Assembly: GCA_004022145.1 (NCBI GenBank)
Contig: RCNU01000010.1
From: Paecilomyces variotii
Taxonomy: Eukaryota
Length of the DNA: 64,000 nucleotides
Direction: 5' to 3' (one strand)
Program-made: the position numbers and the translations under genes
Shown: positions 1 to 19,469 of the stretch, piece after piece
How positions within the stretch are numbered: the first letter of the stretch is position 1
Layout: each line of letters begins with the position of its first letter
The notes under the pieces: generated by a model
The model's database searches: none
The model's input: only the letters and a program-made list of their open reading frames with translations
Told to the model about the DNA's origin: nothing

Positions 1-270
1 CTAGAAAACGGTAATTATAGCCATTTCGGGCTTCTCGTATCTCTGAAGACATGCTGCGGTATGGAGATCCTGCTGGACTCTACTCCGATCTTCATGGTGT
101 TCAAAATACTACTAAATTGTCGTAGATATAAAGGTCGGGATATTTCCGAGAGGCAACATCCATTGTAGGGCTAGTCTGTCAGATAATGACTCTACCCAGT
201 CTCGTATAGTGGATGCTATAAGCGTTGGTGGTAACTAAGCTTGTCGGTAACATCTCGTGATGGTCTCAAT

Positions 271-621
271 CGGAACGCTGTCCGCTTGTGCCAACAAGCG
301 ACTACTTACGCTAAGTAACGTCCTAGCACAATGATCAATTCTGTACGTCAAAAGAAACCACCATAGATAGCCTGAAAATATGGTAGATCTAACACAGGCG
401 GGTCTGTCCAACCTCCACGGTTAGTTTGCGTGGGTATACTCGGATTCCCTACCGGTGATGAATCAAGCTGCGCCAGTGTTGTTCTGCGGGGTCGAGGCGG
501 CGAGGTTACCGTGATTATGGCGAAGAGTGCAATAGATTCGGAACGAGTAGTTATGGGTACAAGCCAATACGATGCGATAGCAATCTATGAGCCGATAGAT
601 CAGCCTACGGGTTGAAGTCCG
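271..621. promoter_or_regulatory. Four CGG-N8-CCG inverted motifs upstream of P5C dehydrogenase (putative Zn2Cys6 binding sites), plus a CreA-type GCGGGG
   Basis: CGG-N8-CCG at 271-284, 441-454, 498-511 and 608-621. SYGGRG at 486-491. Confidence 0.7.
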
Positions 622-730
622 GCAAATCTGGCCACATCATAAGTAGAGCTTCGAATGTTGACTCCCCTTGAATCGTTTAGCAGTCAGTTGTATACCTGTT
701 CTCGGCGTAACACTGACAACTCATCGAAGT

Positions 731-2651
731 ATGGCACTTATGCAGTCCGTGACTTGTTTGCGTTCGAAGTCTCGACGACTGATTCGAGACGGCATAGCTT
801 CATTGCCTTCAGGATCAATTGTGCCGTTACGACACGTTGCTACAGTGCCGTTCCGGTTACCAGCTCCCAGGAATGAACCCAATGTAAGTCTCGGACTGGC
901 AGATCAGAAGAAATTCAGCTAACTGTTTTTAGCTCCAATACAAAAAAGGATCCCCTGAACGACTCCGTCTCGAAGAAGCTTTGAAAAAGCTCCGCTCACA
1001 GCTGCCTCTCGAGAGTCAAATCTTCTACAATGGCAAGGCACAGAAGGCACCAAAGTCCGTTGGACAGCCGATGCCCAGCGAGCATGGCACGACGTTTACC
1101 AACTTCCCACTTGCCACCAAGGAACAAATTTCGGTTTCAATTGACTCTGCCCTCAAAGCAAAGAAGGACTGGGAGAACACACCTTTCGTTGACCGAGCGG
1201 CCATATTCCAGAAAGCAGCTGAACTCGTCGCGACTAAATACCGCTATGAACTTATTGCAGCAACAATGCTGGGCCAGGGGAAGAACATCTGGCAAGCAGA
1301 GATCGATGCTGCAGCGGAGTTGGCGGATTTCTTCCGCTTAAATTGCAATTACGCTGCGGAGCTTCTAGGAAGGCAGCCTGATCGTGGGAGCGATGGGATG
1401 TGGAGGTTAGCCAGCTATCCCTAAGTTAACGTGAGGCATCCCGATCGCGCTGACCTTGAATAGCCGTCTAGACTATCGTCCATTGGAGGGATTTGTGTAC
1501 GCCATCTCTCCGTTCAACTTCACTGCCATCGGTGGAAACCTGATTTCAGGCCCAGCTTTGATGGGAAATGTGGTGATTTGGAAGCCGTCTCCATCCAACA
1601 TTTATGCGAGCACTCTGATTTACAAGATCCTTGTCGAAGCCGGTCTGCCACCAGATGTTATCCAGCTAGTGCCTGGCGATGCTGAAGAGATCACTGACAT
1701 TGTTCTTTCCCACCGTGAGTTTGCGGGTTTGAACTTCACTGGCTCATCGCATGTATTCCGGTCCATCTATGGAAAGGTCAGCAAAGGCGTTTCCGACGGC
1801 TTGTACCGTGACTATCCCCGTCTTGTGGGAGAGACCAGCGGCAAGAACTTTCACCTCGTTCATCCATCGGCAGACATTTCAAGTGCTGTTAACCATACCA
1901 TCCGTGGAGCATTCGAGTACCAGGGCCAGAAGTGCTCGGCAACTTCTCGTCTCTACCTTCCAGAATCCCGTGCTCAGGAGTTCCTCTCACAACTCACAGC
2001 TGGGGTGAACAAGATCACAGTCGGAAGTCCAGATAAAGACCTTGGTGCATTCGTGGGGCCTGTCATCCATCGCCAGTCATTCGAAAAGATAAAGTCCATC
2101 ATCGATGCCAGTAACAAGGATCCGTCGCTGGAGCTTGTTGCTGGAGGAACCTACGATGACTCTGTCGGTTACTATGTTAATCCAACTGTGTACCGAGCTT
2201 CTACGCCAGACCATGAACTCTTTCATAAGGAGATATTCGGCCCGGTCCTAGCTGTATACGTCTATCCAGATGCTGAATGGTCCTCCATCTTGAAGAAGGT
2301 TGACCAAACTGGAGGCGGGTTCGCCTTGACCGGAGCTGTATTTGCTACTGAGCGCACGGCAATTCGAGAAGCAGAAGATACCCTCCGGTACTCTGCAGGA
2401 AATTTCTACATCAGTAAGTCATCCATTGAGTTATTCTATTTGAATGGCTTGTCGAACGCATATGCTAATTATCAATAGACTGCAAAACCACAGCGGCTTT
2501 GATTGGCCAACAATCTTTCGGTGGCAGCCGAGCCAGTGGCACAAACGACAAAGCAGGCAGCTCCAATGTTCTGCTGCGATTTACGAGTCCAAGGCTCATC
2601 AAGGAAGAGTTCTTCCCTCAGAGCACTTTCTTTTACCCTAGTAACGAATAA
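731..2651 (+). CDS. prnC: Delta-1-pyrroline-5-carboxylate dehydrogenase (ALDH4; PrnC/Put2-like), mitochondrial, 4 exons
   Basis: ATG at 731 gives an Arg/Ser-rich presequence then FRLPAPRNEPN. Introns are 884-932, 1406-1463 and 2414-2478 (all GT..AG). Motifs: AISPFNFTAIG, FTGS, ETSGKN (catalytic Glu), EYQGQKCSA (catalytic Cys), EIFGP, FGGSRASGTNDKAG. Stop TAA at 2649-2651. This may be a paralog of the housekeeping gene. Confidence 0.95.
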
Positions 2652-2958
2652 GTTGTATTGGTAAAGATGAAAGGTATGAAATCAAGACGACGGTGATTGG
2701 AGGGTAGCGTAAATGGATTATTCGCAGAGCTAGCTAATTGATTTCAATTATTGCCATAGACCTCGTACATCAGAAGACCACTACATAGTCTTTCGAAATT
2801 TAGAGGAAAACTGTGCAGCGCAATCAATATGAAGTGTATAAATACACATTCAAGAGGCTAGGCGTCATCACATACGGTAGAGGCCTTCATTTTCCATATA
2901 GCAACCTTCTAAGAAGTGTCGTGAGATCCAATTTTCTTAGTTACATTGATATGGAATT

Positions 2959-5494
2959 CTACCATATGTTATTTTGCGCCAGAGCTTGAGACACCCATTC
3001 CGCGTCTCCACTCTCAATCGAGTTGGCCACGGCCAGTATCTGTGCTGTCGTAAACCCTTCGTTGAAAGCATACTGTTCCTGGTTTTCTGAGCTGAAGTTA
3101 TTTTCTGTAAATTGCATTGGGTGTTCTTGTGCAAGCGCGGGACCTGGTTGGTTAACAGCACCGCTATCTCGAGAAACGGCAACATTGGTAGCCGGTATAG
3201 GCCAGGACGATGATAAACGATCCAATACGCCCTCCACTTGTTGTAGCTCAGACTTTCTGAACTTCGCAATCAAATTTCCGCTTGATATCATGTCATCGAT
3301 GATGGAGTGTGACTTTTGAAGCCATGGTGACCGGGTCTCGAGAAGCCGAGTATCAATCACGGGCGCAAGCAAAAGCACCATTGCTGATACGAATACAGAC
3401 TCAAGATCGAAGTAGAGGAATGTCTCTGAGCGAGAATGTGACGTAAGTATAGATATACATAAATATATAGTTTGAAAACTACACCTTACCTAGAAGACCC
3501 TGTGTTTGGAGGTTTCCGAGGATATTGATCATTTGAATGGAAGAGTCGATGCACATCTGCAGCACATTCCGAACTGTCGGAGAAGAGCTTAGAGAATCGG
3601 CAAGAGTCTCTGGAGAGGATATTCGTATCTTAAGGAATGAGAACAACAGCGGTCTTGTGGCAAGGACAATGCACTGAACGCAGGGTTAGTAAGCATCAAG
3701 GAATGGATATGCCATACGCAGACCTGGTGGTAAAGAAGATGTATATACGCTGCCAGCCTGGATATACCGCTAGCGGAGTTTTCCAGTGGAATAGGTAACA
3801 TTCGTCGCATCTCATCGGCTAGACCTGCTACGCTTGCGAGTGCTGACTTGGTGCTGAGCAAAAAGCTCGTGTTGAGTCGTCCGTCAGGACCATAGATAGC
3901 TTATTAGATTAGCCAGTGGATAAGTAGAAGGCCAGTTATTTTACATACTCTCGTTTATCCCTGCTATCACCCGAGACAACTTTATTTGCATATTTAGAGC
4001 CGCCGTCCGCTGTGCTGAGACCATAGACGTTGGTGCTTGGTTATGCAGATGATCGTCGCGTATCGATTGCGGTAGGCCGAATAAGGATGTCATTTCTCTG
4101 TCCAGTATGTATACCGTCCACCAGATCTTTCGACACCTCTGCACTAGACGCTCTCCCAAGTATTGAACTGGCATATCTGTATGCATTCCATATCCTAACG
4201 CCATACGCATTGCTTGCCCGATCTAAAGGTATGAGATGCGTCATTATTTCGTTTCTGAAATGCAATCCAGGTAACTTACATATTGGTGGGACGAATGCCT
4301 AAAGTCCAAGGACTGAAGGTATAAAGCGATGCAGCAAAGGATTTCCGTTGATATAACTGGTTCCTTGCAGAGAACGCTTACGTCTGGCAGAAGTTGAAGA
4401 GCGAGGACAAAGAATTCGGCACCAGGAGGTTTTCTGCCGTCGTTCTTCCGCAACACAAATGCTTTTCCAAACGCGAGAATGACGAGAAAGTGGATATACC
4501 AGAGGTTCGTTTTAGATGTTCGACTGTTAGAGTCCGAATAAAAATCGTAAAGTGACCTCATAAACTCCTCTTCATCGAAAAGGTGGAACAGTTGACCGCA
4601 ATGGAATTTGACAGAGTTGATTAAGTAAATAGCGTGATCAGTAGTTGGAATAGCAGGTTCCTCGGGAATGGAAGTGCGGAATCCATCCCATCCTAAATCG
4701 TAAGCAGAACCGTCAAACAATAGTGTCTCTGTCGGGAGGGGTTCTTGGTAAATGTGCTCATAAACCATGGCTAAAACTCGTCTCGCAAATGACCAGTTTG
4801 ACGAAGTTCCAAGATAAACTGGATTTCTGTTAGCTTTTTGCGTTCCATTACTGCAGGAGAAGCATGTTCACTGACAGGCCCTTCCGTTTGCTGCTGACAT
4901 GTAGGCTGACGGTCCTGTAGAAAGTGGATTTGTTAAACCTGAGGGGATATTTTCCATTTCCTTTTCTGACGGAGCATCTCGGTCCTCGATTTGCGCTTGT
5001 TCCTCGTCCTGGATTGAACCTGCCTCCATATCTGCTGACAAAGGTCAGTAGATATCTCAAGGGATGTTAGAAAGCGAACAATAAGTATCTCAGCCGCCTA
5101 CCATCTTCCAGAATTGTGTCTTGTTCTGGGTCTGTAACGTCCGGACTGGACGGAGTATGGCCTTTGCTCATTCGTCTCAAAGACACAATCTGTCGCTGGA
5201 GATCGATAATGTATCTAGACCACGCACTTAGCAAGTTTCCACTCTCGAATTCTTTCTCCCGTATTACCCTCTGGTCACCATCATTTTCTGATCCCGGTCA
5301 TCGAAGATGCATGGCAGGTTTCGCTTGCTGCACCCACTGCACGGTTGCGATCCCGAACACTTGATCTTTTGCCTTCGACATCGTGTGCACCTGAACAGGC
5401 ATTTTAGCAAGAGTTCCCATTCCTATCGCGGCGGGTTTACATGCGCATTAGAAGATCTTTTTCCTACTCTGCGTTTTTCCTTCCCAGATTCCAT
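2959..5494 (-). CDS. Zn(II)2Cys6 transcription factor with fungal TF middle-homology domain (Put3/PrnA-like), multi-exon
   Basis: The spliced N-terminus reads MESGKEKRRVGKRSSNA-CTRCRRQKIKCSGSQPCSGCSKRNLPC (CX2CX6CX5CX2CX6C). Later segments: YLGTSSNWSFARRVL, FHCGQLFHLFD, PPGAEFF, ALRMALGYGMH, RCRKIWWTVYILDR. The C-terminus FTTAQILAVANSIE...NNIW* ends at 2959. Internal exon boundaries are approximate. Confidence 0.88.
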
Positions 5495-5875
5495 TTGTCT
5501 GAACAGTCTCTTCAATGTCTGGATAGCATGAGCGATGAGTGTTCCTCTCACTTGGTCACTGCGGCGTGTACAGGCTACTCCTAAGTACCATCGCTACCTA
5601 CCTAATCTTTCCATCGGTTCGAGGGGAAACCCGGGGCCATTATCCTTGTCTAGCCCATTATGGTAATCAAATCGCAGCGCGTTAAGCTTTAATAATGCAC
5701 TTATGGAATATATACCATAGTCAAATGCGGGGTAGCAGTTCTCAGAATTGAATTGGTCCTGTGGGATGGAGACCGATGATTAAGTGAATCGACTCGAAGA
5801 ACGCCGCCGAGAAATGCCAGAATTCCCGTCTTTTGCCGCTCCAGTTTAGTTAGGTACTTACACCCGATAAGAGAC

Positions 5876-5889
5876 CGGATGCTCTTCCG
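5876..5889. promoter_or_regulatory. CGG-N8-CCG motif in the promoter of the cluster TF
   Basis: CGGATGCTCTTCCG lies about 380 bp upstream of the TF ATG. A CreA-type GCGGGG is at 5727-5732. Confidence 0.55.
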
Positions 5890-6148
5890 ACCATTTGAGA
5901 TAATTATATACGAGCTAGCGACAACTAACTACCTAACTACCTACTTGTTAGTTCTCGCATATCAATAGATAGAAGAATGATAGCGAGAACAACCAATAGT
6001 AATGCTATGCATATCTCAAGAACCTATGATATGACCAGGATCAGATCGATAACTGTCTCGCTTCCTATCTACTATCTATCCCACACATGGGACTAGAACA
6101 GATCCTATCTGTGCCTCCGTCTTACCTACTACTTACTAACTATTTTAA

Positions 6149-7763
6149 TTATACAGAATTGGAGTTATCGGCGCAGGACCAGGCAGCGGATCCTCCCGAT
6201 TCTCTGTAAGTATCAATAATGTTGACAATAGACCCATAAGTACCACCAACCATCAAGAACGTTCCAGAGAGTACAACGAAAACACTCCAGCAAACCATCA
6301 AAGCCCATTTGCGGTCAGTGGCCAGCTTTCCGCGGCTCCAGTTATCGTATAGCCACATGCAGCCCATCGGCTGAAATGCCATGAGTGTACCCAGTAGAGC
6401 ACCCACTAGTGAGACAAGACTCCCAAAGACAGGGATCGCACTGGCAATGATATAGGCAGTTACCGCGATACCAAATGTACAGCCCAACCAAGTTGTCCAG
6501 TGTACTACCGTATTGGCGACAAGATGCCTGGATCCTTGCAATATGCGAACAAAGATATACTTGGCTGGCAACTGCAGAAAACAATTAGCAAATCTTCCTG
6601 GGTAGCATCCACTGGAGTGCTTAGTTACATGAATTACAAGCGTGGTTGTGACGATTAGACCGGGTAGAGCAAAACCGTAGGCAACCTTCTTTACCATAAC
6701 ACCAGCGGAGCCAAGGGCGGGCGAAGCAACATAAGACCCGCAATAATAGTAGACAACACAGCCAATTGTGATATATATGGCCGTTACACCACCCTGGCAT
6801 AGTAGTAGTGATCGAGTATATTTGCGAGGGTCGCGCATTTCAGATACGATGGCGAAGAATGCCGGTGTTCCCGCGTACGCGAAGACGATAGAGGACACAG
6901 CAGACATGGCATCGCTGAAGCTAGGGTTGTTGACAATTTTATAGTCTGATTTCCAGGGACCACTCTGTGGCGCAGCGCTGGGACGATCTTGTATACCAAC
7001 AGCAATGGTCACAATGAGGACTGTGAAGCATGTTAGATCATAGCTGGAGACTTATAATGGATCAACCCACTAGCAGTAAGGATACAGGTGACGCCAACCC
7101 ACGCAAGCCAACTGATGCGGCCGAGCGTACGAATACTACCCAGGACGAAGCTTACGGCAGTGGCAATGGCAACGAAGACAGCTGTACATGTACCATGGGT
7201 AGAAACAGCATTGAGCCCGATCGATATACCTAGGATACCAGATCCAGCTACGAAGGTCCAATCTGTATGGTCAGAAAATAGTCTCTTTCGTTGCAGGAAT
7301 GACCTACAAAGACAGAACGAGAATCCAAGCATCACACGGCCAATGTGACCAAACATTAATCCACCGGCATCGTCGATACTGTAGACTGTGGGATGGAGAA
7401 GCTTGAAAACTCCGATCATGTAGTCCGACCACGTCGTGATAACCGCAACAACTAACAAGATGATGACCCCTGGAACGAGGCCCAATATGTCAAAGGCACT
7501 TGGAATTGAGAGGACACCGAGGCCAATCTGGGTCTTGAGCATCAGAACGGTTGTTCCGAGCCATCCAACCTGCAAGGTCATCAATTCGTGCACGAAAATG
7601 GATCTTGGAAAGAGCATACGTTACGATAGTTGGGGCCGTCGTCGGTGATATCCCCAAAAACAGCATCGTGAGTATAACTCGTGCCATTGTGAATTTCTCC
7701 GATCTGTGAGGGAACTGTAGCTAACTCCTCGGGGCCAACTTTAGCCTTGGACATGTCAGACAT
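6149..7763 (-). CDS. Amino-acid permease, Aa_trans/AAAP family (Mtr-like neutral amino acid transporter), about 5 exons
   Basis: ATG at 7763 (MSDMSKAK). Motifs: HDAVFGDITDDGPNYRNVGWLGT, MLKTQIGLGVLSIP, FAYAGTPAFF.IVSEMRDP, GSYVASPALGSAG, C-terminal WSCADNSNSV*. Many hydrophobic TM segments. Confidence 0.92.
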
Positions 7764-8009
7764 TGTGCAGAAGATGTTATGAATAACCATCAATCCGGGC
7801 AATGGTTGTGTGGGGAGATCGAGTCTTTAAATTCAACTGAGGCACCCAACTTTCTCTAATAAAGAGGCCTGTCTGCCATTGTTGGGTTTCATAATCCCCG
7901 AAGGCCTGAAGGGTGACGCCACCAATCTGTGTTATCGCTAATCTGATACTGTTACTAGAACCACTTTATCGGTTATGTTCTCTCCTCTCCTAGCTCAGGA
8001 TTAGATACC

Positions 8010-8423
8010 CGGAGGCCTTGCCGACAACGGAGGCAACGATCAAGCTTCCACGAGCAATTCCTCGGGAAGACGCCGCCATTAGACCGGAACCTCAGGCGAC
8101 GTGTCACTTGTTAATGTTCTGTTGCTTCCCCGGATTCTTCGAATCTAGTTTGGGCATATGATCTTGGGAAGTACTGGATTGAACAGGCCGTAATGTCCAA
8201 TTCAAAGTTATCACCGACGGAGACTGTTGGCCAGTCGTAATATAACTACATGTAACTCTATATGCCATGCAAGTAGTAGTAGCTTTAGGAGAGCGCATAA
8301 AGTCACGATGCGAAATCCTGTAACATCCCTACCAGTGAAGCAATACTCCATACTTCACATCCTTAATAAGATTACTGTTGATTTATTATTCTGAAGTTAT
8401 CAGTCCTTTCGGGAGGCCTTCCG
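8010..8423. promoter_or_regulatory. Two CGG-N8-CCG motifs upstream of the permease
   Basis: CGGAGGCCTTGCCG at 8010-8023 and CGGGAGGCCTTCCG at 8410-8423 share an AGGCCTT core. CreA-type sites are at 8587-8592, 8772-8777 and 8785-8790. Confidence 0.65.
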
Positions 8424-9943
8424 GAGTCTAACGATGTGAAATAACGTCAGATGCATCTGCATAAGTCCAACATTATTAAACTGCGAAGGATTCTTCATAG
8501 CTATAATCAGTTAATATGCGGCATTGTTGTCACTTGCTAGGGATGGATAACCCGGATCTATCAATTCGCACTTTGGACATACCTATGCGGGGTACCTAGT
8601 CTTTGTGTTACACATGAGACACCTCGGATATTTCATTCTGCAGATGGCCATAGATGCTTGTATAACTATACCACTGCCACGGATATTGCCGACCTGCAGA
8701 AACATTGTTGGATATGTGCACTGATCGGAACAATTGACTTCTGATCAAGCCCCAGATTTATTCTGTTGGGTCTGGGGTTGCAATGCGGGGGAACGGGCAT
8801 GTCAATCACTGCTTCTTACGGCAAGCGGAGGGATAAGCTAATGATGGCACTGTTGAGAGACTGGCTGAGGAGTGGGACATTTCGCCATGGGCACAGAGAA
8901 GCTGAGCAGGACCTCTTGCTCTGTCTGAAGCTCATTTCAGTGGGGGTGAAGTTACAGCTACCTGTCGCGATACAGGATACATTCTGAGGATATCGCGCAT
9001 CCGTGTGTACCTGAGACAATGGAGTCGAAGCCCACCAATTATAAGGTGGAGGTTGCGCGGTTGCAGTCTTCGCTCATTGATAGCGACCGTGAACAGCAAT
9101 TAACAAGGAGCCTTCTTTTCAAGCTTAACATGAGGTATGCATGGGAACTTATACAACGGCTGCCCAAAATGCAAGAGTTACATAGTATTTATATTCGCAA
9201 AACCGTTACTCAACAACGCCTAGTAGCAGTCAAGGTTGACATCTATTAAGTCTTCGCTTGGCCTGTGAATGGACGAGTAACTAATGTCTGGTTAAAGGTT
9301 GCTCAAACGAGTCTTCTGAAGTTGTTAACATTTCGGACTATTTGCTCCCCATTAGCTTACCAGGGTACACAACACTGTATGTACAGAGCTATCCAGACGA
9401 AATATGAAACAACGACTGTTCCGTTCTCGATCGAATGTGTGGGCTCTCTTCTATTGGTATGGCTGTCTCGGTTGTATTCCGTATCTAGTCGATTCTTGGA
9501 CGAAGGATATAGAAGACGGATACGGTGACAGGCTTCTGCTAACACTTGGCACCGCAGTGGTTCTCTTGAAGTACATGCATTAACGTACCTCATACTCTGC
9601 CGCAGTCTCTGCTATGTTTGATTTTGGCATTTTCGGGTGTTTTCTTTGACCAAGAGGATATTCTGTCCTCGTTAAGATAGTCTCATTAATTTGTGCCTTC
9701 TGACGAAGTAAACGGGATAAACTGAACAGAGGTTGTTTGAACGGGGTTTAAATGTACCCTATTATATACCCTCAAGAAGCTTCTAGAGAAATATTCTACT
9801 TCAACTGCAAGAATGGATCAACATGATAATTTATTGTCCAATGCCATATCGAAGAGCTTTCGCTTTCGTATGCTGCTGAATCTTCATATTGAGTGGTTCC
9901 CCTTTCTTTTCTTTTTTTTATATATTAGTTGTTTCCATCTGAA

Positions 9944-11089
9944 CTAAAAGTCCTGGACAGAAAGCCCCTTGCCTCGCCGACTGGCGAGTGATAATATCGC
10001 TGTACCCGCTGCGAGATCAGTCATACTCACGCCGACGCTCTTGTATATAACAAATCCCTTTCCTAACCAGTTTTCCAATTGCTCATTATCCGAACGATCG
10101 TCCTTCAAGTTTATGACCTCGCCGACTTCTACCAGCTGCTCCGGTTTAAGTTGACTTTGAATTAACTCGCCGGAGCTCGTTCGTGCAACTTCACGATCAT
10201 CCACTATCACAGCTCCACCGGCACCGCCTCTTGGGTTATACGCGGAGTTTGATGTGACGGCATCCCGTAACAGTTCAGGATCCAACTCAATCATGCTAGG
10301 CTGCCAGGAACCGATGCTCGATACATAACAACCACCTGTTTCAGAGAGTTGTCTCCGAAGAAAACGAGCGGGAAACAAAGGAACTTTCGACGGTGTCGTA
10401 CAGAAAACAACATGAGCAGTAGCAAGCACGTCTTCTAACTGCCTCTGGAACTCGGCGTCTGTAATATCGAGAGAATCCAGCTGAACAGAAGACTTCCAAC
10501 GTGACTGATTCTCTTCTCTTATCTGAGAAACCAACGATCGAGACCTCTCAGCAGATCGATTCACGATAGTAATCTGTTTGATCTCGTCTCCTCTGAGTGC
10601 CAAGGCAAGGCGAATATGCCATAAGGCTTGCTTCCCGGCCCCAAAGACTACAATTTTAGCAGTCCTTTCTCGCCATGAGAATGGGATCATAACAGAAAGC
10701 GACGTGCGGTGAGCTGTGATCTCGTCGGCGTTGATGATTCCCCTGGGCAGGCCGTCCTTGTTGCACAGAATCAAGAGCCCGTGCAGAGTAGGTTTATTGG
10801 CATTGGTAGTGTTCTCCTGCAAAGAATCGGTTTGTTCTCTCGACGTACTTGGATCAACGATGATCTTCGTTCCCACATATTCTGGCGAGGTGAAGGCTCT
10901 GAATAGAGTCTTGACGCCGTTTGAACGGGCCACAACGGCTGGTTCTGGCTGAAAGCTTCGTTCGTCAGAGGTGGAAAAGCTCAGCAGAGACGTGGCGAGA
11001 GTATTGAGGAATTCACAAATCTCATCTTTTGAGAGGCTGATTAAGATTTCTTGCACGATTTTATCGCCTAGGACGGTGCAGTTTTCCAT
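9944..11089 (-). CDS. Ornithine cyclodeaminase/mu-crystallin family NAD(P)-binding protein (PrnX-like; candidate Delta1-pyrroline-2-carboxylate reductase), intronless
   Basis: First ATG at 11089 (MENCTVLG). Motifs: INADEITAHRTS, Rossmann VVFGAGKQALWH, FCTTPS..PLF, IGSWQP.MIELDP, IYKSVGVSMTDLA. Confidence 0.88.
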   Translation of the reverse strand: MENCTVLGDKIVQEILISLSKDEICEFLNTLATSLLSFSTSDERSFQPEPAVVARSNGVKTLFRAFTSPEYVGTKIIVDPSTSREQTDSLQENTTNANKPTLHGLLILCNKDGLPRGIINADEITAHRTSLSVMIPFSWRERTAKIVVFGAGKQALWHIRLALALRGDEIKQITIVNRSAERSRSLVSQIREENQSRWKSSVQLDSLDITDAEFQRQLEDVLATAHVVFCTTPSKVPLFPARFLRRQLSETGGCYVSSIGSWQPSMIELDPELLRDAVTSNSAYNPRGGAGGAVIVDDREVARTSSGELIQSQLKPEQLVEVGEVINLKDDRSDNEQLENWLGKGFVIYKSVGVSMTDLAAGTAILSLASRRGKGLSVQDF

Positions 11090-11298
11090 AGTTTGGTTCA
11101 AATGAGATATGGTATTGTCAGAGTCTGTAGGATTCAAGTGATATCAGGTAGAGTTAATTGCTCGAGTATTGCAAATCATAGCACGGCTACAACGCTGATT
11201 TATGCTTCAACAGCGCTGCTCATATCACTCCGGATTCAGAGGGTTTCTTTGGCTCTTTCAAAACGGAGTTGATCAGATACGGCTCTCTTTGCCGAAAT

Positions 11299-11570
11299 CG
11301 GCGGCGTTTCCGACTTTCATTTAATCGACACACGTCCCAACTGAGACAGCCAACAGAAGTCATTAATATGATCGTATCTTATAATATCTACTTAGCAAGG
11401 AGGGGGAAGTCTCTATGTGGACTGGTTGGTTGTCATCGTCCGAGTCCATACTCGGAGTGGTAGGCGCAGAAGATCTACCGCAGGGTATATAGGGACAGCG
11501 AATTCAAAATCTATAAACATTTAATATCCATGGACGACATTACCTGTCAACTTTATCGGGAATGTTACCG
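11299..11570. promoter_or_regulatory. Two CGG-N8-CCG motifs in the divergent OCD-like/racemase promoter
   Basis: CGGCGGCGTTTCCG at 11299-11312 and CGGGAATGTTACCG at 11557-11570. A CreA-type CCCCGC is at 11652-11657. Confidence 0.65.
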
Positions 11571-11862
11571 TTACTGAATGGATACTTATCGTATTTGCGC
11601 GGAAGTTGTACCTATATCGGTATCTCTCCCCATATACGCATAGATACGGTGCCCCGCAAGGCAACATAAAAGAAAATAGGAAACGCGCAAAGCGACATTT
11701 CATCTTTCTAGTTACTTATCATCATCATCATCATTATTATTATTATTATTTTTCGTCCTTGCATGTTCAAAGATAATAAATTCCATATACTTCTCAACGG
11801 CAACAGCAACAGTCCGTTTGATCCCTCAGACATCAAACCGGCCCGGTTGATATCTCAGCGGA

Positions 11863-12909
11863 ATGGGTATCAGTCGAACAATTAGCATAGTTGGCTGCCA
11901 CTGCGCGGGCGAAGTTGGCGATGTCATCGTTGGAGGTGTTCTCGACCCCCCTGGATGTTCAACGATGTATGAAAAACTGGTCTACTTCCGAGACAAAGCT
12001 GATGATATTCGTCAACTTCTCCTGAATGAGCCCCGAGGCCGGCCGGCCATGTGCACGAACCTCGTCCTCCCGCCATGCAATCCCAAAGCAGATGCCGGGT
12101 TTCTTATCATGGAGAGTGAAGAATACCCACCAATGTCGGGTGGTAATACTATTTGCACAGCCACTGTGCTGCTGGAAACGGGGATGGTGCCAATGAAAGA
12201 GCCGATTACCAGGATGCTACTAGATACGGCTGCAGGTCCTGTAGGCATCACTGCCGAATGTGAGAATGGGAAGTGCAGGGCCGTTGCTTTTGACAACGTA
12301 CCTGCGTTCGTATTCGCTCTAGATTATAAGGTCCGAGTACCTGGTCTTGGAATGATTTCTGTGGATATTGCCTGGGGCGGCATGATTTATGTAGTTGTCG
12401 ACGCAGCGTCCGTTGGTCTTCGTATCAACAACAGAAATGGTCCGAAACTTATTGACATCGGCGAGAGGATCAAACAAGCTGTACAAAACGCATACACTCC
12501 TGTTCATCCGGAAAACCCGGGGATTCAAGGAGTCTCTATTCTCGAGTTTACGGAACCTCTGCGGCAGGAACCATCAGGAGAAAAAGTAGCTGTTAACACA
12601 GTTGTGGTAGCTCCTGGAAGGTTTGATCGTTGCCCATGTGGCACTGGGAGCTGTGCTAGAATGGCGATTTTACATGCAAGGGGACAGCTGGAAGTTGGAG
12701 AAAAGTTTCAGCATCGCAGCATCATTGGGAGCAGCTTCGAGTGTCATATACGAGGTACGACGAAGGTTGGAGAATATGATGCAATCCTCCCAAGTGTGAA
12801 AGGAAGTGCTTGGGTCACAGGGTATAAGCAGATGTTCTTGGATTCTACGGATCCTTTTCCTCTTGGATTCAGGGTGGGAGATCAATGGCATATGTCAGAT
12901 GCTGCTTGA
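11863..12909 (+). CDS. Proline racemase superfamily enzyme (Ser/Cys catalytic pair; candidate hydroxyproline epimerase/dehydratase), intronless
   Basis: 348 aa ORF. Motifs: GCHCAGEVGDVIVGG, LLNEPRG, YPPMSGGNTIC (Ser92 at the first catalytic position), VDIAWGG, DRCPCGTG (Cys259), DPFPLGF. Confidence 0.93.
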   Translation: MGISRTISIVGCHCAGEVGDVIVGGVLDPPGCSTMYEKLVYFRDKADDIRQLLLNEPRGRPAMCTNLVLPPCNPKADAGFLIMESEEYPPMSGGNTICTATVLLETGMVPMKEPITRMLLDTAAGPVGITAECENGKCRAVAFDNVPAFVFALDYKVRVPGLGMISVDIAWGGMIYVVVDAASVGLRINNRNGPKLIDIGERIKQAVQNAYTPVHPENPGIQGVSILEFTEPLRQEPSGEKVAVNTVVVAPGRFDRCPCGTGSCARMAILHARGQLEVGEKFQHRSIIGSSFECHIRGTTKVGEYDAILPSVKGSAWVTGYKQMFLDSTDPFPLGFRVGDQWHMSDAA

Positions 12910-15900
12910 AATATGTTTCAGCCGCGCATTTCGTATTCGAGACATCTCAACGCCTCTAGCAATGAGAATAAAAGAAAGAGATAAATCTAAGAATATATGG
13001 GATAACAAGAGACTGAATCTACCCTGTATTTTTTCTATCTCGCGCTCAAGTATTTAGAATGAAGGCATCGTACGATATTAACCGCGACTTATGGGACTAA
13101 CAAGATCCCAACAAACAGCAGTAGCCTTGCCTTCCCATAAGTCCTTATCATTCAACGCCCGGAACGCAGGCACAGACGATCATAATGCGTGAAAAAACAG
13201 AGCCTCCCATCAGCTCAGCTGTCCTAAGCCACATACAGGCAAATTGGTAGCTAGAGGAACATACAATTACTGCGGTCTCCAAACCGGTTATATTGCGCGA
13301 GCGTCAATACCTATTTGAAGTAATTACAGTCCAGCAGTTACAGTATGTAGCGACTATCTTATAATTGATCTTTAATCAATATTATCCTTGTCGAAGCGAT
13401 ATTGATAAAGCAAATAAGGCGTTTCATCACAGATCACATTCTATTGCGGGTTTTATGTAACAGAGTAGTCCCATGCCAAACCTCATTCTAATTAGTTCAT
13501 TTCACCCTAATGTTACATCCCCTTCCACCGCTTTTTTTCTTTTCTGTAGTCAGGCCACTTTACTGTCCCTATTCTCTTAGTCATCGGCGCTCGGGGTGCG
13601 TAGGATCCCTAGTAGGCTAGTAGGGTTCTATGTACAGTGTGCGCCTTACATTGGTGCCCTGACGATATCGGGAGAAAAGCAAAAGAAAAACAAAAGAAAC
13701 AAAAAAAATAGCGTGCTAGAGATTTTCTATAGTGCTTTTTACTCTAGAGTATTGAGTCTTATGAAGAGTCTTTCAAGTTTTCGGGGAGGTACTTGTATAT
13801 TGATCAATTGCTAAAGCTAGCTTTGACCTTGACGAGGATTTTAGTGACTTAACAACAGGTAATTACTTACCTTCTCAGTCCTCTCCGGGGAATGGTCTTT
13901 GTGTATGTGTATTGGTATGTGTTATCCTTGCACGAGTCACCAACTCTTCTTCTTGTCTTTGAAAGACGATGAATAATACTGCAGTGCGATTGACCAGTCG
14001 AGTACCTTGTTGAGGCGAGGTTATCAGGGTTCATCGACCCGTACCCAATTAGAATATGTAGTATCAATAAGTACGGGCTGGCTGAAAGACAACCCTCGAA
14101 ACTCCAACTTTTGCCGACTCATCCAACATCATACTGGCTGACGCTGTCGGCCCCGGTGATGCCAAGCGCATACCAGAGGAAACAGGCTCGCGACCTCCCT
14201 CGAACTTCCAAGGGAGGGAGCGTTCGTGAGCGCCTGGCTGGTATTATTATTGATTAATGCTAGTTCTCAGAATAGCGGTGATCAGTTGCGGCTTGGTTTC
14301 TTTTGGCGTTCCCGGTCTAGATACATTACTTACAGCAGAAGTGAGAATACTTTGTACGCTGTTTCTTGTAATGGAGACGGATGTGCTTTGATTGCGAATC
14401 CCATTATCATATTTGTTTCCTTTCTTTCGCAGGGAATAATGATATTAATAATAACTAACAATATCATTGACTAACTACTATTTTTTTTATCCTAGCTTCT
14501 CCATGAATAATAACTAGCAGCGCTACAGCAGCACGCCGCCGTTTCGTACCTGTCAAACAATAGTAACTAGTGGTAAGTGAGACCTCGACTCCGCTTCCGA
14601 AACGCAGATCACATAGTAAGCGTGAAACGAGGGCAGTAATTATTATTATTATTATTTCCTCTCTCGCCACCCAGGAACCGCATCTCGTCAGCAAATCGAC
14701 GGGCCTCAGATCGTCCGCAAGAATTTAGTTAATTATTCTAGATTGGGGAGTCCTTGCTGAGATAATAATTCCAGCCATTCTGGTGTTTCCTGTCGGGCGC
14801 ACTGCTGTACGACCATGGCTGGCTTAGACACAAAGCCAGGACTTAGCATTGTGTCGCCTTACAGGACTTGAGAGTACTTACAATACTGTACAATGGATAT
14901 CGCGGCTTCTGAGGTAGTTAGTTACTTATGCCTGGCGATCGATCATGAAAATCGAAGCTTGAGTCTGCTGCTCACAGGGAGTAGTAAACGGCAGGTAATA
15001 ATAATAATAATAAGAACTATTATCGGTTCAGCAGCTGGGAATGCGAAGGCCCCACTGGCCCTATTATTACTGCTTGCGAGAGAGGCCCCTTGGGGAGATG
15101 ACCGCTCCGCGATGTCAAGGAACGGTACCTTGAGCCTTGAGGCCTCCTGTGATCCTCAAAAGGAGCCTATCAAATCTGGATGCGGACCTTGTAAGATCGA
15201 GCGCTGAATAATGGTGACCCTTGCCACTCTCGTTCAGCTCTGCTGACTCGCACATGACTATTATTATCTGGTTCTGAGCAACAGGGAGAACCGGTGATAA
15301 CTTAATAATAATTGTATACATCGGTGGCTAACTCGATGCTACCATGAGAGCCGGCGGATGGGAATCGTGCTGGTCTTCGCGGACACGTGTATCGCATATT
15401 ACGTTAGCGAGGGGAATCATAGTTAACTAAGTTAACTAATAACTACCTAAAGAATAAGCAACCGGGGGTTGAATGCGAGATGGTCAGCTTCGATTTCAAC
15501 GTCCTACGACCAATTTACGAACAATTCGGATCCGAACGTCGCCTGGTTTCCCCCCCTGGGGTTACTGGCTTGCAGCAGCCGGGTGACCTGCGGGTCAACT
15601 CGTAGCCTCTCTGATTCATGAGGTTGCCAGGCTCCGCTGGTTCTTTTTAAGACATCCATTATTGCTGCTGCATGTCGCGATATCTATGATCGACCAGATT
15701 CCCATCGGCGGGCACAATTGACGCCAGCTACGGCTTAAATACGCAGAAAGAACATTGTGAGATTCCGCATTCTAATCATCAATACAATCTCCAGAGAGCC
15801 AGACCCAAAGCGAGAGAAGTGTCGATGTCTCCACATTTGGCACGCGAATGGGGCCGACGTCTATAAGTTAGCGGTCCGTCGAACGAGCTCGCGAAGTCCG

Positions 15901-17010: not shown

Positions 17011-17297
17011 CTTCTCTTCCAGCATCCCTCCCTCCTGCTCGACTTCTCTGGGCTGTTGGCGTCCTGCTGGCCATGTGTCTGTCTCGTCCTGAGGGCTTGT
17101 TTGCCTCTCTCCCAGCAAACATCATTCCTGCTCCCTCCACCCTTCCGGCCATCGCCTGATCTATGGAGCTGGGCGACCTCAGCTTTCCGTGCTTCTGGTA
17201 GCTGAGAGCCAGCTCATAAGATCCTCCAGGTTGTTTAACCTCTTTCTCGAGACTCTTGACACTCCAATTCCTTTCCGTCACGGCCACATCTCTCGTC

Positions 17298-19469
17298 ATG
17301 GCGGTTTTGGATGTTCCCGACACCGGGCTGTCTCTCCGGAGAGACCAGCCCGATGGCCTCTCCCCCGGACCGTCAGCCAGAACCACACAGATCATGCGGT
17401 TGAATCTCGCCCAGAGCACCCTGGATGAGCTCGTCCAAAGCCTTCGAAATGAACAGAAAGCTCGAATCCGCCTAGGGAGACACCAGACCCTTTACTACGG
17501 TTCCAAAGCTCAACATTTCCGCTCCTCACCCGAAGCCCACCGATCTGAGATCTACAGCGCCAATCCGGCAGATAAGGAAAACATGTACTTCACTGGTGTC
17601 CTTAGTCACAACCTCGAGGTTCAAAAGGCTAAGGAGGACACTGCGGCAACCGATGAGGCCCTGGCCAACCTTGAGCTGAGCCTGAATGCCTTCGAAAGGG
17701 GAAAGGAGTCCAAGAAGACACACATGATCACAAATATACTGGATGTGAAGGCTCTTGGCGCTGGAGATAACCGGTCTTCGACGGGTAAACAAGCCGCCCG
17801 TCTGGCTCGCATGCCAACAAGCAAGATTGATGTGGAGAAGGAGAGGTTCTTCAAGAATGCGGCGAACCGGTCCATCCCCACCAGCCCTGCATTAGGCGTT
17901 ACACGCTCTCCCGTTCCCGCCCTCTCATCTACCTCCGCACCCTCAACCCAAAACAAGGATAGAATTCGTCTAGAGGCATTGAAGGTGCCCTTCATCCATC
18001 TACTGGCCATTCGGGCTGTCTCGGTGAAGTTCTTGGCGCGGCAGACTCGCTCTTCTCAAGAGGACTGTCAGGCGTTGGCTCGCAAATATGGCACTGAGAA
18101 CCGCCTTGATCGTGACAAGTTCGATCTCAAGGACAAGGCATACCGAGATCTCGATGTCTGGAACTTCCCCTATCCCAGTCAGGAAGACCGCCAGGAGGCT
18201 ATCGAGAATGCCATCTCGGCCTTTGACCGGATGCGTATCTCCCGCTCAGACAAGCTCTGGCAGATGCTTCTCCCCAAAGAAGAACGTGGTAAGGGCAAAG
18301 TGCTCTCGCGTCTGGACCTGAGCAAAGGACCCATCAAGAAGGCTGTCACTCCTCGTATCCATATCCAGCCGTCTGAGGATACTGGCAAGGAAGGATATGT
18401 CACTGGAAACGAGACGGATAGGACGAACGGAAGGCATACACCTAACACCACCGCTGGAAAGCTGACTCCCAAGCTTGGGGCAACGACGCAAAAGAAACGA
18501 GTTGGAGACAGAGATGGCCCTGCCAAGCGAGCATCAACCAAGGCCAAAAACACAACGTTGACTGGGCGGGTGACCAAGAAGACGGAGAAAAAGCCAACTG
18601 CCAAACCAGATGGCAAGTTCAAATCTGCTGAATATGTACACGACTCTGATGAGGATGATACGGATATGGCCGATGCTCCCCCACCCAGGAATCCAGAGCT
18701 CGAAAAGGTGAGACCGGCCAGTGCGGTTGCCAGCAAGGCTCCCACACCATCGAAGGTAGCCACGGACTCCCGGTCATCCGCCCAAAAAGCACCTAAGCAA
18801 GAGGCTGAACGTGCCAACCCAAAGCCCTCTTCCTCCACTGCCGGTACTACTGGATCGAAGACGTTGCCCAGCTCATCGCGACCCTCAAACTCGTCACCCC
18901 AGAAACCGTCCCCTCTCGCGTCTTCGCCTCCTACGAACGCATCCGACCTCGACAGTGCGAGCAGCAAGTCTGTTCCAGATGCTTCGTCGAGTTCCTCGTC
19001 ACCTCTCATCACACAGATATCCAAGAATAAACCATCTGCTGATGCCCCTCGCGTGACGAAACCCTCTGTGAAGGTTAATGGTACTGCCCAGAGACCGCAA
19101 GGAACTGGGAATCCGCTGAAGCGCAAGGCTCGTATCGACCATGATACTAGCTCTACCGCCCGACTGAATGGGCATATCAATGGGCATCTTGAAGCAAAGC
19201 GGCGACGACCACCTAGTGTATCTAGTGGCAGCAGTACTGGCAGCGCCTCCCCGCCTCTTAGCCAGGAACTTCTCCGGCAGCAACTGCGAGAGAAGTCGCA
19301 AAAGTTCAAGCAGTATTACACCAAGTACCGCGCTCTACATGAGACATTGGCATCGCAGCCAAATCCGCCTCGTGCGGAGCTAGATAAGCTCGAGAGACAG
19401 CATACTCGCCTACAGCTGATGAAGAAGGAAATCTGGGATGAAGATCGGAGACTCCGCAGTGGCCTATAA
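17298..19469 (+). CDS. Putative RNA polymerase II elongation factor ELL-like protein
   Basis: Intronless ORF from the first ATG at 17298 (MAVLDVP). It has a central winged-helix-like block (FDLKDKAYRDLDVWNFPY), a long S/P/K-rich disordered region, and a C-terminal occludin/ELL-like helical domain (FKQYYTKYRALHE...LERQHTRLQLMKKEIW). Confidence 0.65.
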   Translation: MAVLDVPDTGLSLRRDQPDGLSPGPSARTTQIMRLNLAQSTLDELVQSLRNEQKARIRLGRHQTLYYGSKAQHFRSSPEAHRSEIYSANPADKENMYFTGVLSHNLEVQKAKEDTAATDEALANLELSLNAFERGKESKKTHMITNILDVKALGAGDNRSSTGKQAARLARMPTSKIDVEKERFFKNAANRSIPTSPALGVTRSPVPALSSTSAPSTQNKDRIRLEALKVPFIHLLAIRAVSVKFLARQTRSSQEDCQALARKYGTENRLDRDKFDLKDKAYRDLDVWNFPYPSQEDRQEAIENAISAFDRMRISRSDKLWQMLLPKEERGKGKVLSRLDLSKGPIKKAVTPRIHIQPSEDTGKEGYVTGNETDRTNGRHTPNTTAGKLTPKLGATTQKKRVGDRDGPAKRASTKAKNTTLTGRVTKKTEKKPTAKPDGKFKSAEYVHDSDEDDTDMADAPPPRNPELEKVRPASAVASKAPTPSKVATDSRSSAQKAPKQEAERANPKPSSSTAGTTGSKTLPSSSRPSNSSPQKPSPLASSPPTNASDLDSASSKSVPDASSSSSSPLITQISKNKPSADAPRVTKPSVKVNGTAQRPQGTGNPLKRKARIDHDTSSTARLNGHINGHLEAKRRRPPSVSSGSSTGSASPPLSQELLRQQLREKSQKFKQYYTKYRALHETLASQPNPPRAELDKLERQHTRLQLMKKEIWDEDRRLRSGL

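Follow-up and report, generated by a model that had tools for sequence, protein, structure and literature searches.

A five-gene locus of Paecilomyces variotii with a shared CGG-N8-CCG promoter element and a possible role in the catabolism of hydroxyproline-type imino acids

A 64,000-nt stretch of contig RCNU01000010.1 of Paecilomyces variotii, analysed here as a whole and referred to as the window, carries at nt 731-12909 five genes encoding a Δ1-pyrroline-5-carboxylate (P5C) dehydrogenase (P5CDH), a Zn2Cys6 transcription factor, an AAAP amino-acid permease, an ornithine cyclodeaminase (OCD)/mu-crystallin protein and a proline-racemase-superfamily (PRS) enzyme. The question raised by this locus is whether these genes act together and, if so, on what substrate. 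Plant cell-wall glycoproteins and collagen are rich in hydroxyprolines, the breakdown of which has been worked out in bacteria and mammals. In our judgement, the case is about evenly balanced that the five genes form a co-regulated Paecilomyces catabolic module for a non-standard imino acid, most likely hydroxyprolines, that joins the proline-to-glutamate route; in broader terms, they probably channel some uncommon relative of proline, a hydroxyproline or a D-imino acid, via L-proline to glutamate, the exact substrate being unproven. The genes are as follows.

731..2651, + strand: P5C (L-glutamate gamma-semialdehyde) dehydrogenase of the PrnC/Put2/ALDH4 type, 582 aa, Arg-rich N-terminus; 4 exons, 731-883, 933-1405, 1464-2413 and 2479-2651
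5494..2959, - strand: Zn2Cys6/Fungal_trans factor, 693 aa; 9 exons, 5494-5445, 5390-5268, 5214-5102, 5031-4876, 4818-4280 (exons 1-5), 4222-3949, 3899-3724, 3673-3490 and 3425-2959 (exons 6-9)
7763..6149, - strand: AAAP amino-acid permease, 470 aa; 5 exons, 7763-7620, 7569-7308, 7262-7071, 7020-6629 and 6571-6149
11089..9944, - strand: OCD/mu-crystallin protein of a PrnX-like family, predicted NAD(P)H ketimine reductase of the Δ1-pyrroline-2-carboxylate (Pyr2C) type, 381 aa; one exon
11863..12909, + strand: PRS enzyme, predicted hydroxyproline 2-epimerase and/or 3-hydroxyproline (3-Hyp) dehydratase, 348 aa; one exon

Gene models were built from open reading frames (ORFs) and splice sites and then checked against public reads. 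Run X1 yielded spliced RNA contigs with 100% identity to the window, the joints of which confirmed 12 of the 15 coding introns: all three of the P5CDH gene, all eight of the factor gene and one of the four in the AAAP gene (6572-6628), the other three being predictions based on GT..AG sites and the frame. The same RNA placed the factor start at ATG 5494 and one acceptor at 5031, and a GC..AG first coding intron (5444-5391) and a 5′-untranslated intron (5519-5601) were seen only via the RNA contigs. The PRS transcript was represented by an unspliced contig, 11569-12881, and starts at or before 11569. Runs X2-X4, labelled as RNA, gave contigs unspliced across the introns, which reflect a collinear, ~98%-identical strain and not expression; contig depths were unfit to rank genes, and X1 carries no conclusion on co-expression. 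The window proteins were 98-100% identical to entries of P. variotii or P. lecythidis, and locus tags of P. variotii comprise five consecutive gene models (DTO166G4_1879 for P5CDH, _1882 for OCD, _1883 for PRS). An earlier sequence-only reading had proposed these coordinates, this gene list and the divergent orientation of the OCD and PRS genes, which are separated by a 773-bp intergenic region; the models, RNA and locus tags agreed with it, and the five functions that it assigned were matched by the Pfam profiles Aldedh, Fungal_trans, Aa_trans, OCD_Mu_crystall and Pro_racemase.

A sign that these genes belong together was found in their promoters. When the intergenic DNA of the cluster was scanned for CGG/CCG pairs with spacers of 0-14, the arrangement CGG-N8-CCG stood out, with the following sites (no strand assigned).

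271-284, 441-454, 498-511 and 608-621: four sites in the P5CDH promoter
5876..5889: one site upstream of the factor gene
8010-8023 and 8410-8423: two sites upstream of the AAAP gene
11299-11312 and 11557-11570: two sites in the bidirectional OCD/PRS promoter, 11090..11862
13273..13286: one site downstream of the PRS gene

In this intergenic DNA (5,781 bp), 10 CGG-N8-CCG sites were present against a shuffle mean of 0.5, a number reached in 0 of 2000 shuffles, and spacers 4-7 and 9-13 gave 0-3 sites each. The entire window possessed 29 sites versus 11.7 expected (29 reached in 0 of 100 shuffles), and the rest of the window contained 18 in 50 kb, about twice the shuffle expectation. Taking this rest-of-window rate as the null, the cluster had a Poisson probability of 6e-5, and the P5CDH promoter alone, where four sites in 730 bp were observed versus 0.26 expected, one of 1.6e-4. 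Since the promoters share an element specific in its spacer, the grouping of the genes appears to be more than chance.

The element was also observed at other fungal loci, which were obtained by a scan of metagenome contigs that yielded 12 fungal PRS loci (about 8 independent) and 68 bacterial ones. In locus L009, five of the six sites were located upstream of the factor ortholog and between the OCD and PRS genes (binomial 3.6e-5), and in L001 five of eight flanked the PRS and AAAP genes (1.7e-3). A single site lay 243-263 bp upstream of the PRS gene in L001, L004/5 and L006; none was found upstream of the PRS gene in the more distant loci L003, L007, L010 and L012. The PrnA-type sequence CCGG-N-CCGG showed no clear enrichment in the window (26 versus 18.8 expected with at most one mismatch; 26 reached in 6 of 100 shuffles). 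Thus, of the proposal that this is a prn-like regulon, co-regulation gained support from CGG-N8-CCG here and at two other fungal loci. The window's only exact CCGGNCCGG, a PrnA-type inverted repeat, was located at 11838-11846, 17 bp before the PRS start codon, and may be a chance occurrence.

A candidate for binding these sites is the clustered factor. Members of the Zn2Cys6 class have a CX2CX6CX5-12CX2CX6-8C cluster and a fungal-specific middle domain, and both were present: the protein, which begins MESGKEKRRVGKRSSNACTRCRRQKIKC, contains the motif CX2CX6CX5CX2CX6C as CTRCRRQKIKCSGSQPCSGCSKRNLPC, read from the sequence, and one of its exons matched PF04082. An Atlas search with one factor exon returned only "transcription factor domain".

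Gene order was conserved in part. Locus L009 (GC 37%) contained orthologs of the factor (40-70% identity by segment), OCD (41%) and PRS (65%) genes, with the factor gene adjoining the same divergent OCD/PRS pair, and nothing else related (P5CDH, proline oxidase (PRODH) or permease) within 6-8 kb. Locus L001 (78% identical) contained the PRS gene and, 2 kb downstream of it, an AAAP ortholog. The window, L001 and L009 grouped as one subclade in the tree. The linkage of all five genes, conservation of which the sequence-only reading had named as a test of its proposal, was therefore not kept outside Paecilomyces and is a feature of that genus, while the factor-OCD-PRS core and the PRS-AAAP pair recur elsewhere.

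The route that these genes may serve can be outlined as follows. The AAAP permease would import the imino acid; the PRS enzyme would catalyse either C2 epimerisation of hydroxyproline or dehydration of 3-Hyp to the ketimine Pyr2C; the PrnX-like OCD enzyme, judged from its family, would use NAD(P)H to turn the cyclic ketimine into L-proline or L-hydroxyproline; P5C would come from a proline oxidase whose gene lies elsewhere; and the clustered P5CDH, a member of the canonical family, would oxidise P5C to glutamate. The Zn2Cys6 factor would switch on all the genes via the CGG-N8-CCG sites. The simplest serial version runs 3-Hyp to Pyr2C to L-Pro to P5C to Glu, and only in this version would the PRS product be the OCD substrate with no further enzyme, which makes it the sole scheme to link both partner enzymes directly.

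How well the PRS enzyme fits its step depends on its catalytic residues. The protein matched PF05544 over the full length (407 bits, profile positions 1-325) and possessed both superfamily motifs, M-[C/S]-G-x and D-R-x-P-[C/T]-G-T-G (PMC4364671), with the catalytic dyad Ser92 (PMSGG) and Cys259 (DRCPCGTG). Both residues were invariant in 28 fungal sequences (68-92% identity), and Ser/Cys was found in 80 of 80 metagenome relatives (12 fungal, 68 bacterial). The best PDB relatives, 4k8l, 1tm0 and 4k7g_B (304-332 bits), the last of which is named a 3-hydroxyproline dehydratase, read PPMSGSN and DRSPTGTG, a Ser/Thr dyad, versus PPMSGGN and DRCPCGTG in the window enzyme, so that Cys259 aligns to their Thr and the second residue typical of dehydratases is missing. 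The Cys/Cys or Ser/Cys dyad typical of epimerases is present, as in the Ser/Cys chains 4lb0 and 4q2h, which matched the enzyme less overall (258-272 bits). In the alignments, its loop WGGMIY was closer to those of the epimerase chains (YGGIFY, YGGVFY) than to that of the dehydratase chains (YGGDSF). The top NCBIfam model was trans-3-hydroxyproline (t3-Hyp) dehydratase; against the models for 4-hydroxyproline (4-Hyp) 2-epimerases, scores fell below the cut-offs (NF010578, 262 versus 376; NF052296, 158 versus 450; NF010577, 112 versus 442). Nor was the gene context of such an epimerase, comprising D-Hyp oxidase, Δ1-pyrroline-4-hydroxy-2-carboxylate (Pyr4H2C) deaminase and α-ketoglutarate semialdehyde (KGSA) dehydrogenase, observed, no D-amino-acid oxidase (DAO) or dihydrodipicolinate synthase (DHDPS) gene being present in the window.

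Among the enzymes described by Zhao et al. 2014 (PMC4113996), the solved Ser-Cys enzyme is a 4-Hyp 2-epimerase, promiscuous for 3-Hyp epimerisation, and the solved Ser-Thr enzyme is a t3-Hyp dehydratase; 3-Hyp dehydratases have Thr at the second dyad position, and the "light sky blue" sequence cluster is of mixed function. Watanabe et al. 2014 (PMC3958920) reported that a Thr-to-Cys mutant of the human Cys/Thr dehydratase gains epimerase activity. From its Ser/Cys dyad, the window enzyme is thus predicted for two-base chemistry, i.e. epimerisation, whereas its overall similarity, and the gene that accompanies it, favour the dehydratase route. The proposed conversion via Pyr2C is plausible as regards the pairing with an OCD-like enzyme, but the dyad, being neither Ser/Thr nor Cys/Thr, makes direct formation of Pyr2C not the default expectation.

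The partner enzyme, the OCD protein, matched PF02423 weakly, above the cut-off (36 bits, cut-off 24), and its best PDB match was 8h8p, a thiomorpholine-carboxylate (ketimine) dehydrogenase (E 3.8e-19). Its top NCBIfam models were reductases of Pyr2C and of Pyr2C/Δ1-piperideine-2-carboxylate (Pip2C), which ranked above cyclodeaminases, SbnB and alanine dehydrogenase, all far below their cut-offs. The protein possessed a Rossmann motif (G-x-G-x-x-A) as GAGKQA at residues 150-155, and Lys75, Arg128 and Asp358 in motifs of the carboxylate-binding Lys-Arg-Asp triad defined for LhpI (PMC3958920); the Arg and Asp align to 8h8p, the equivalence of the Lys resting on motif likeness alone. A cluster auto-named "Proline utilization protein PrnX-like" was its third-nearest in the Atlas. 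Since its best matches outside Paecilomyces were only 46-59% identical (52% for the best Aspergillus match), the protein is a relative within the PrnX family and not clearly a PrnX ortholog. In Xylaria curta, an OCD homologue (P0241) is fused to a sideroflexin-like domain, which, like a Monosporascus contig described below, hints that proline-related genes can be arranged in other ways.

Several observations weigh against a hydroxyproline module of this kind. Neither enzyme reached the cut-off of an NCBIfam equivalog (PRS: NF047722, 391 versus 550 bits, and NF045511, 246 versus 540; OCD: NF005603, 80.5 versus 266, and NF004793, 72.4 versus 322), and the characterised enzymes with the Ser/Cys dyad are 4-Hyp/3-Hyp 2-epimerases (PMC4113996, PMC3958920). 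Genes for PRODH, DAO and DHDPS were not found anywhere in the 64-kb window, and a tblastn of the window with a DAO-containing protein matched only the P5CDH part of the latter; the route to P5C thus needs a gene elsewhere. At five independent fungal loci (L003/L007, L004/L005, L006, L010/L011 and L012), the neighbours were unrelated and none of the four partner genes was present; OCD and PRS tags were adjacent in none of the three serially tagged species (A. nanangensis, E. dermatitidis and C. hubeiense); and in P. variotii No. 5 the P5CDH gene is on a different contig from the OCD and PRS genes. The cellulase regulator ClrB, too, has CGGN8CCG as its published putative site (PMC8313289), and this geometry is generic for Zn2Cys6 sites (PMC9280406, PMC8313289), so the clustered factor is no more than a candidate for binding here.

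The bacterial neighbourhoods are mixed as well. Of 68 bacterial Ser/Cys loci, the 48 flanked by 2 kb or more were counted, in which PALP occurred in 10, DHDPS in 8 and OCD in 7, followed by SDR and GntR (6 each) and ALDH, 2-hydroxyacid dehydrogenase and GMC (5 each). Where OCD adjoins PRS, which counts in favour of the module, it is usually directly downstream, often in the order PALP-PRS-OCD. Since the fungal PRS clade is sister to all the bacterial relatives, this context transfers no function to the window. A recurring operon, PALP-Ser/Cys PRS-OCD, often with a 2-hydroxyacid dehydrogenase gene upstream, was seen in L040, L050, L061, L069 and L075, and no mention of this context was found in the available text of PMC4113996. 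The general precedent invoked by the sequence-only reading, that bacterial PRS enzymes are paired with OCD-family enzymes, was borne out by published systems (PMC4113996, PMC3958920). Its imino-acid theme is likewise plausible, with the qualification that the route needs a PRODH from outside the window and that the dyad points to epimerisation.

The dyad lends some weight to a different arrangement of the same enzymes, which we regard as rather unlikely. The PRS enzyme would be a true 2-epimerase interconverting D- and L-imino acids (e.g. cis-4- or cis-3-hydroxy-D-proline), the OCD enzyme would separately reduce ketimines produced by a D-amino-acid oxidase encoded elsewhere, and both, working side by side, would supply proline oxidase and the clustered P5CDH with L-proline or L-hydroxyproline. 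Consistent with this are the invariance of the Ser/Cys dyad and its agreement with characterised 2-epimerases (PMC4113996; alignments to 4lb0 and 4q2h), the epimerase-like loop, and the induction of the Pyr2C reductase of A. brasilense by D-proline (PMC3958920). A link to such an oxidase was also seen in Monosporascus, where one contig carries a P5CDH+DAO fused gene model (DL769_000287) four tags from an OCD homologue (DL769_000291); the Monosporascus proteins concerned are P0361 and P0135. However, the oxidase gene was not found in the 64-kb window, the divergent OCD/PRS pair conserved between the window and L009 suggests a shared intermediate, and the overall similarity of the PRS enzyme was highest to dehydratase-type chains and to a dehydratase NCBIfam model.

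The P5CDH gene bears on a further question, whether the locus is a second, specialised prn-like regulon, as the sequence-only reading had proposed, or an ordinary prn cluster in altered form. P5CDH was 95.9% identical to the P. lecythidis protein P0242 over residues 1-582 (full length), and this ortholog, scored in place of the window protein, reached 722.5 bits with NCBIfam TIGR01236 (P5CDH group 1; cut-off 613.6). The query exon shared 74-81% identity with P5CDHs of nearly every Pezizomycotina genus listed. A C-terminal stretch, NFYINCKTTAALIGQQSFGG, initially seemed unusual; it was the same or near-identical in 15 of 16 relatives examined, and only in the remaining one was the pattern not found. 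The enzyme belongs to the single, universal fungal PrnC-type orthogroup. In the tree of the best 120 matches, each species had one copy and no paralogue split was shown; a single Paecilomyces cluster was present among these matches, with no second copy seen. P5CDH is thus, by sequence, most simply a canonical fungal PrnC-type enzyme and not a second copy, and with an ordinary enzyme and no second Paecilomyces copy among these matches, the proposal of a second prn regulon found no support and is unproven. In five gene models of other fungi (P0245, P0257, P0309, P0351 and P0354), a P5C-reductase-like domain (PF03807/PF14748) was fused N-terminal to P5CDH, which implies neighbouring genes of the same orientation in Aspergillus section Flavi, Colletotrichum, Aplosporella and Thelonectria.

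In Aspergillus nidulans, the prn cluster comprises prnA, prnX, prnD, prnB and prnC, and prnX encodes a ~40-kDa proline-inducible protein of unknown function (PMC5983819). The window resembles it in having a Zn2Cys6 regulator, a prnC-type P5CDH and a permease, but differs in that no proline oxidase is present, the permease belongs to AAAP and not to YAT/APC, a PRS enzyme is encoded, and the enriched site is CGG-N8-CCG instead of CCGG-N-CCGG. Neither the proline oxidase gene prnD nor the YAT permease gene prnB was found in the 64-kb window, which starts 730 bp before P5CDH. By the automatic name of the Atlas cluster, PrnX is itself an OCD-family protein.

It is therefore conceivable, if unlikely, that the locus is a variant or remnant of the ordinary prn cluster (prnC, regulator and a prnX-like gene) for L-proline use, next to which an unrelated PRS gene and a permease happen to lie, with PRS and OCD as dispensable passengers in the way of prnX in A. 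nidulans. The canonical type of the P5CDH, the fungal family of the OCD protein with its Atlas clusters named PrnX-like, and the reports that prnX is proline-inducible yet unneeded for proline use and that a complete prn cluster is retained in few Aspergilli (PMC5983819) would agree with such an origin, and prnB and prnD could lie left of the window start. On the other hand, L009 keeps the factor, OCD and PRS genes together with no P5CDH, PRODH or permease within 6-8 kb, the enriched element is not the PrnA-type one and is shared by the PRS gene in several fungi, and 52% identity to the best Aspergillus match is low for a PrnX ortholog within the Eurotiales. Mere adjacency with no functional coupling, the motif enrichment being due to another regulator (e.g. 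of ClrB type) or to local composition, is improbable: the linkage is not kept in most fungal loci examined and CGG-N8-CCG is a generic Zn2Cys6 geometry (PMC9280406, PMC8313289) that also exceeds the shuffle expectation about twofold outside the cluster, but the enrichment is specific to spacer 8, the element recurs beside orthologous genes in L009 and L001, and one metabolic theme fits all five genes.

Comparison with characterised hydroxyproline systems places the proposed module among relatives that each match it in part. The bacterial t3-L-Hyp pathway (LhpH dehydratase with LhpI Pyr2C reductase, and t3HypD/OCD pairs) likewise has PRS genes adjoining OCD and transporter genes and yields L-proline (PMC3958920, PMC4113996), and it is enzymes of this kind that the window PRS enzyme matched best in PDB and NCBIfam; the window enzyme differs in having Cys in place of Thr and scores below the equivalog cut-offs, and the window comes from a eukaryote, the regulator being of the Zn2Cys6 type, the permease of the AAAP family and a P5CDH gene being linked. 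The Ser/Cys 4-Hyp 2-epimerases ("orange" cluster; 4lb0, 4q2h), which are also promiscuous 3-Hyp epimerases (PMC4113996), have the identical dyad; they match less well (258-272 bits versus 304-332 for the Ser/Thr chains), and the D-amino-acid oxidase, DHDPS-type deaminase and KGSA dehydrogenase of their gene context are absent from the window. Mammalian L3HYPDH, a Cys/Thr t3-Hyp dehydratase, and the ketimine reductase CRYM together convert 3-Hyp to L-proline in two steps and belong to the same superfamilies; L3HYPDH is distant (PDB 7qpo, E 2.9e-40) with another dyad, and the genes are unclustered.

In a literature search, no paper was found on a fungal hydroxyproline pathway or on this cluster; the nearest fungal remarks, both in PMC5144071, are that A. 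niger has an AcnX gene close to a putative 3-Hyp dehydratase gene and that the AcnX homologue of Trichoderma reesei was assayed. The more specific version of the module, an undescribed hydroxyproline-type regulon of Pezizomycotina in which the factor, through CGG-N8-CCG, would drive a Ser/Cys PRS enzyme and a PrnX-family reductase to convert 3-hydroxyprolines to L-proline, is put forward tentatively and must be considered doubtful.

The permease is assigned to AAAP by PF01490, which matched two of its exons (72.6 and 51.8 bits) jointly spanning profile positions 4-409. Between the AAAP and OCD genes, one further feature was located.

8262..9840, no strand assigned: strain-specific segment of 1,579 bp, bridged by a joint 8261->9841 in the X2, X3 and X4 contigs

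This segment was absent from the ~98%-identical strain represented by those contigs. In X1 it gave a spliced minus-strand transcript (contig 8583-9290, intron 8501-8582), and a search of its translations found no ORF that was convincing. The segment may have arisen as an insertion specific to the strain, its transcript being a non-coding RNA, and probably lies outside the pathway.

The left border of the cluster is outside the window, which begins 730 bp upstream of P5CDH. An X1 RNA contig of 6,964 nt spans the convergent P5CDH and factor transcripts (window 1-5600) and runs about 2 kb past the left end of the window, which indicates transcribed sequence directly upstream of P5CDH. Beyond 12909, a stretch of about 4 kb that lacks long ORFs is followed by unrelated genes encoding DUF155/RMND1, a C2H2 factor, a methyltransferase, an acyltransferase, a P-type ATPase, BRAP2, polyubiquitin and MCU. 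Two long ORFs had no Pfam match.

17220-19469, + strand: ORF of 749 aa
52380-53792, - strand: ORF of 470 aa

Fungal proteins annotated as "proline racemase" were 67-84% identical across Eurotio-, Sordario-, Dothideo- and Chaetothyriomycetes. Some of them carry the label dehydratase, racemase or epimerase with nothing to justify it, and the dyad result bears on this annotation. If the module proposed here is real, it would provide a function for these widespread annotations, a testable pair of regulator and site, a first biochemical role for the PrnX-like OCD proteins, for which there has been no explanation since the description of the prn cluster, and a first fungal route for the catabolism of hydroxyproline.

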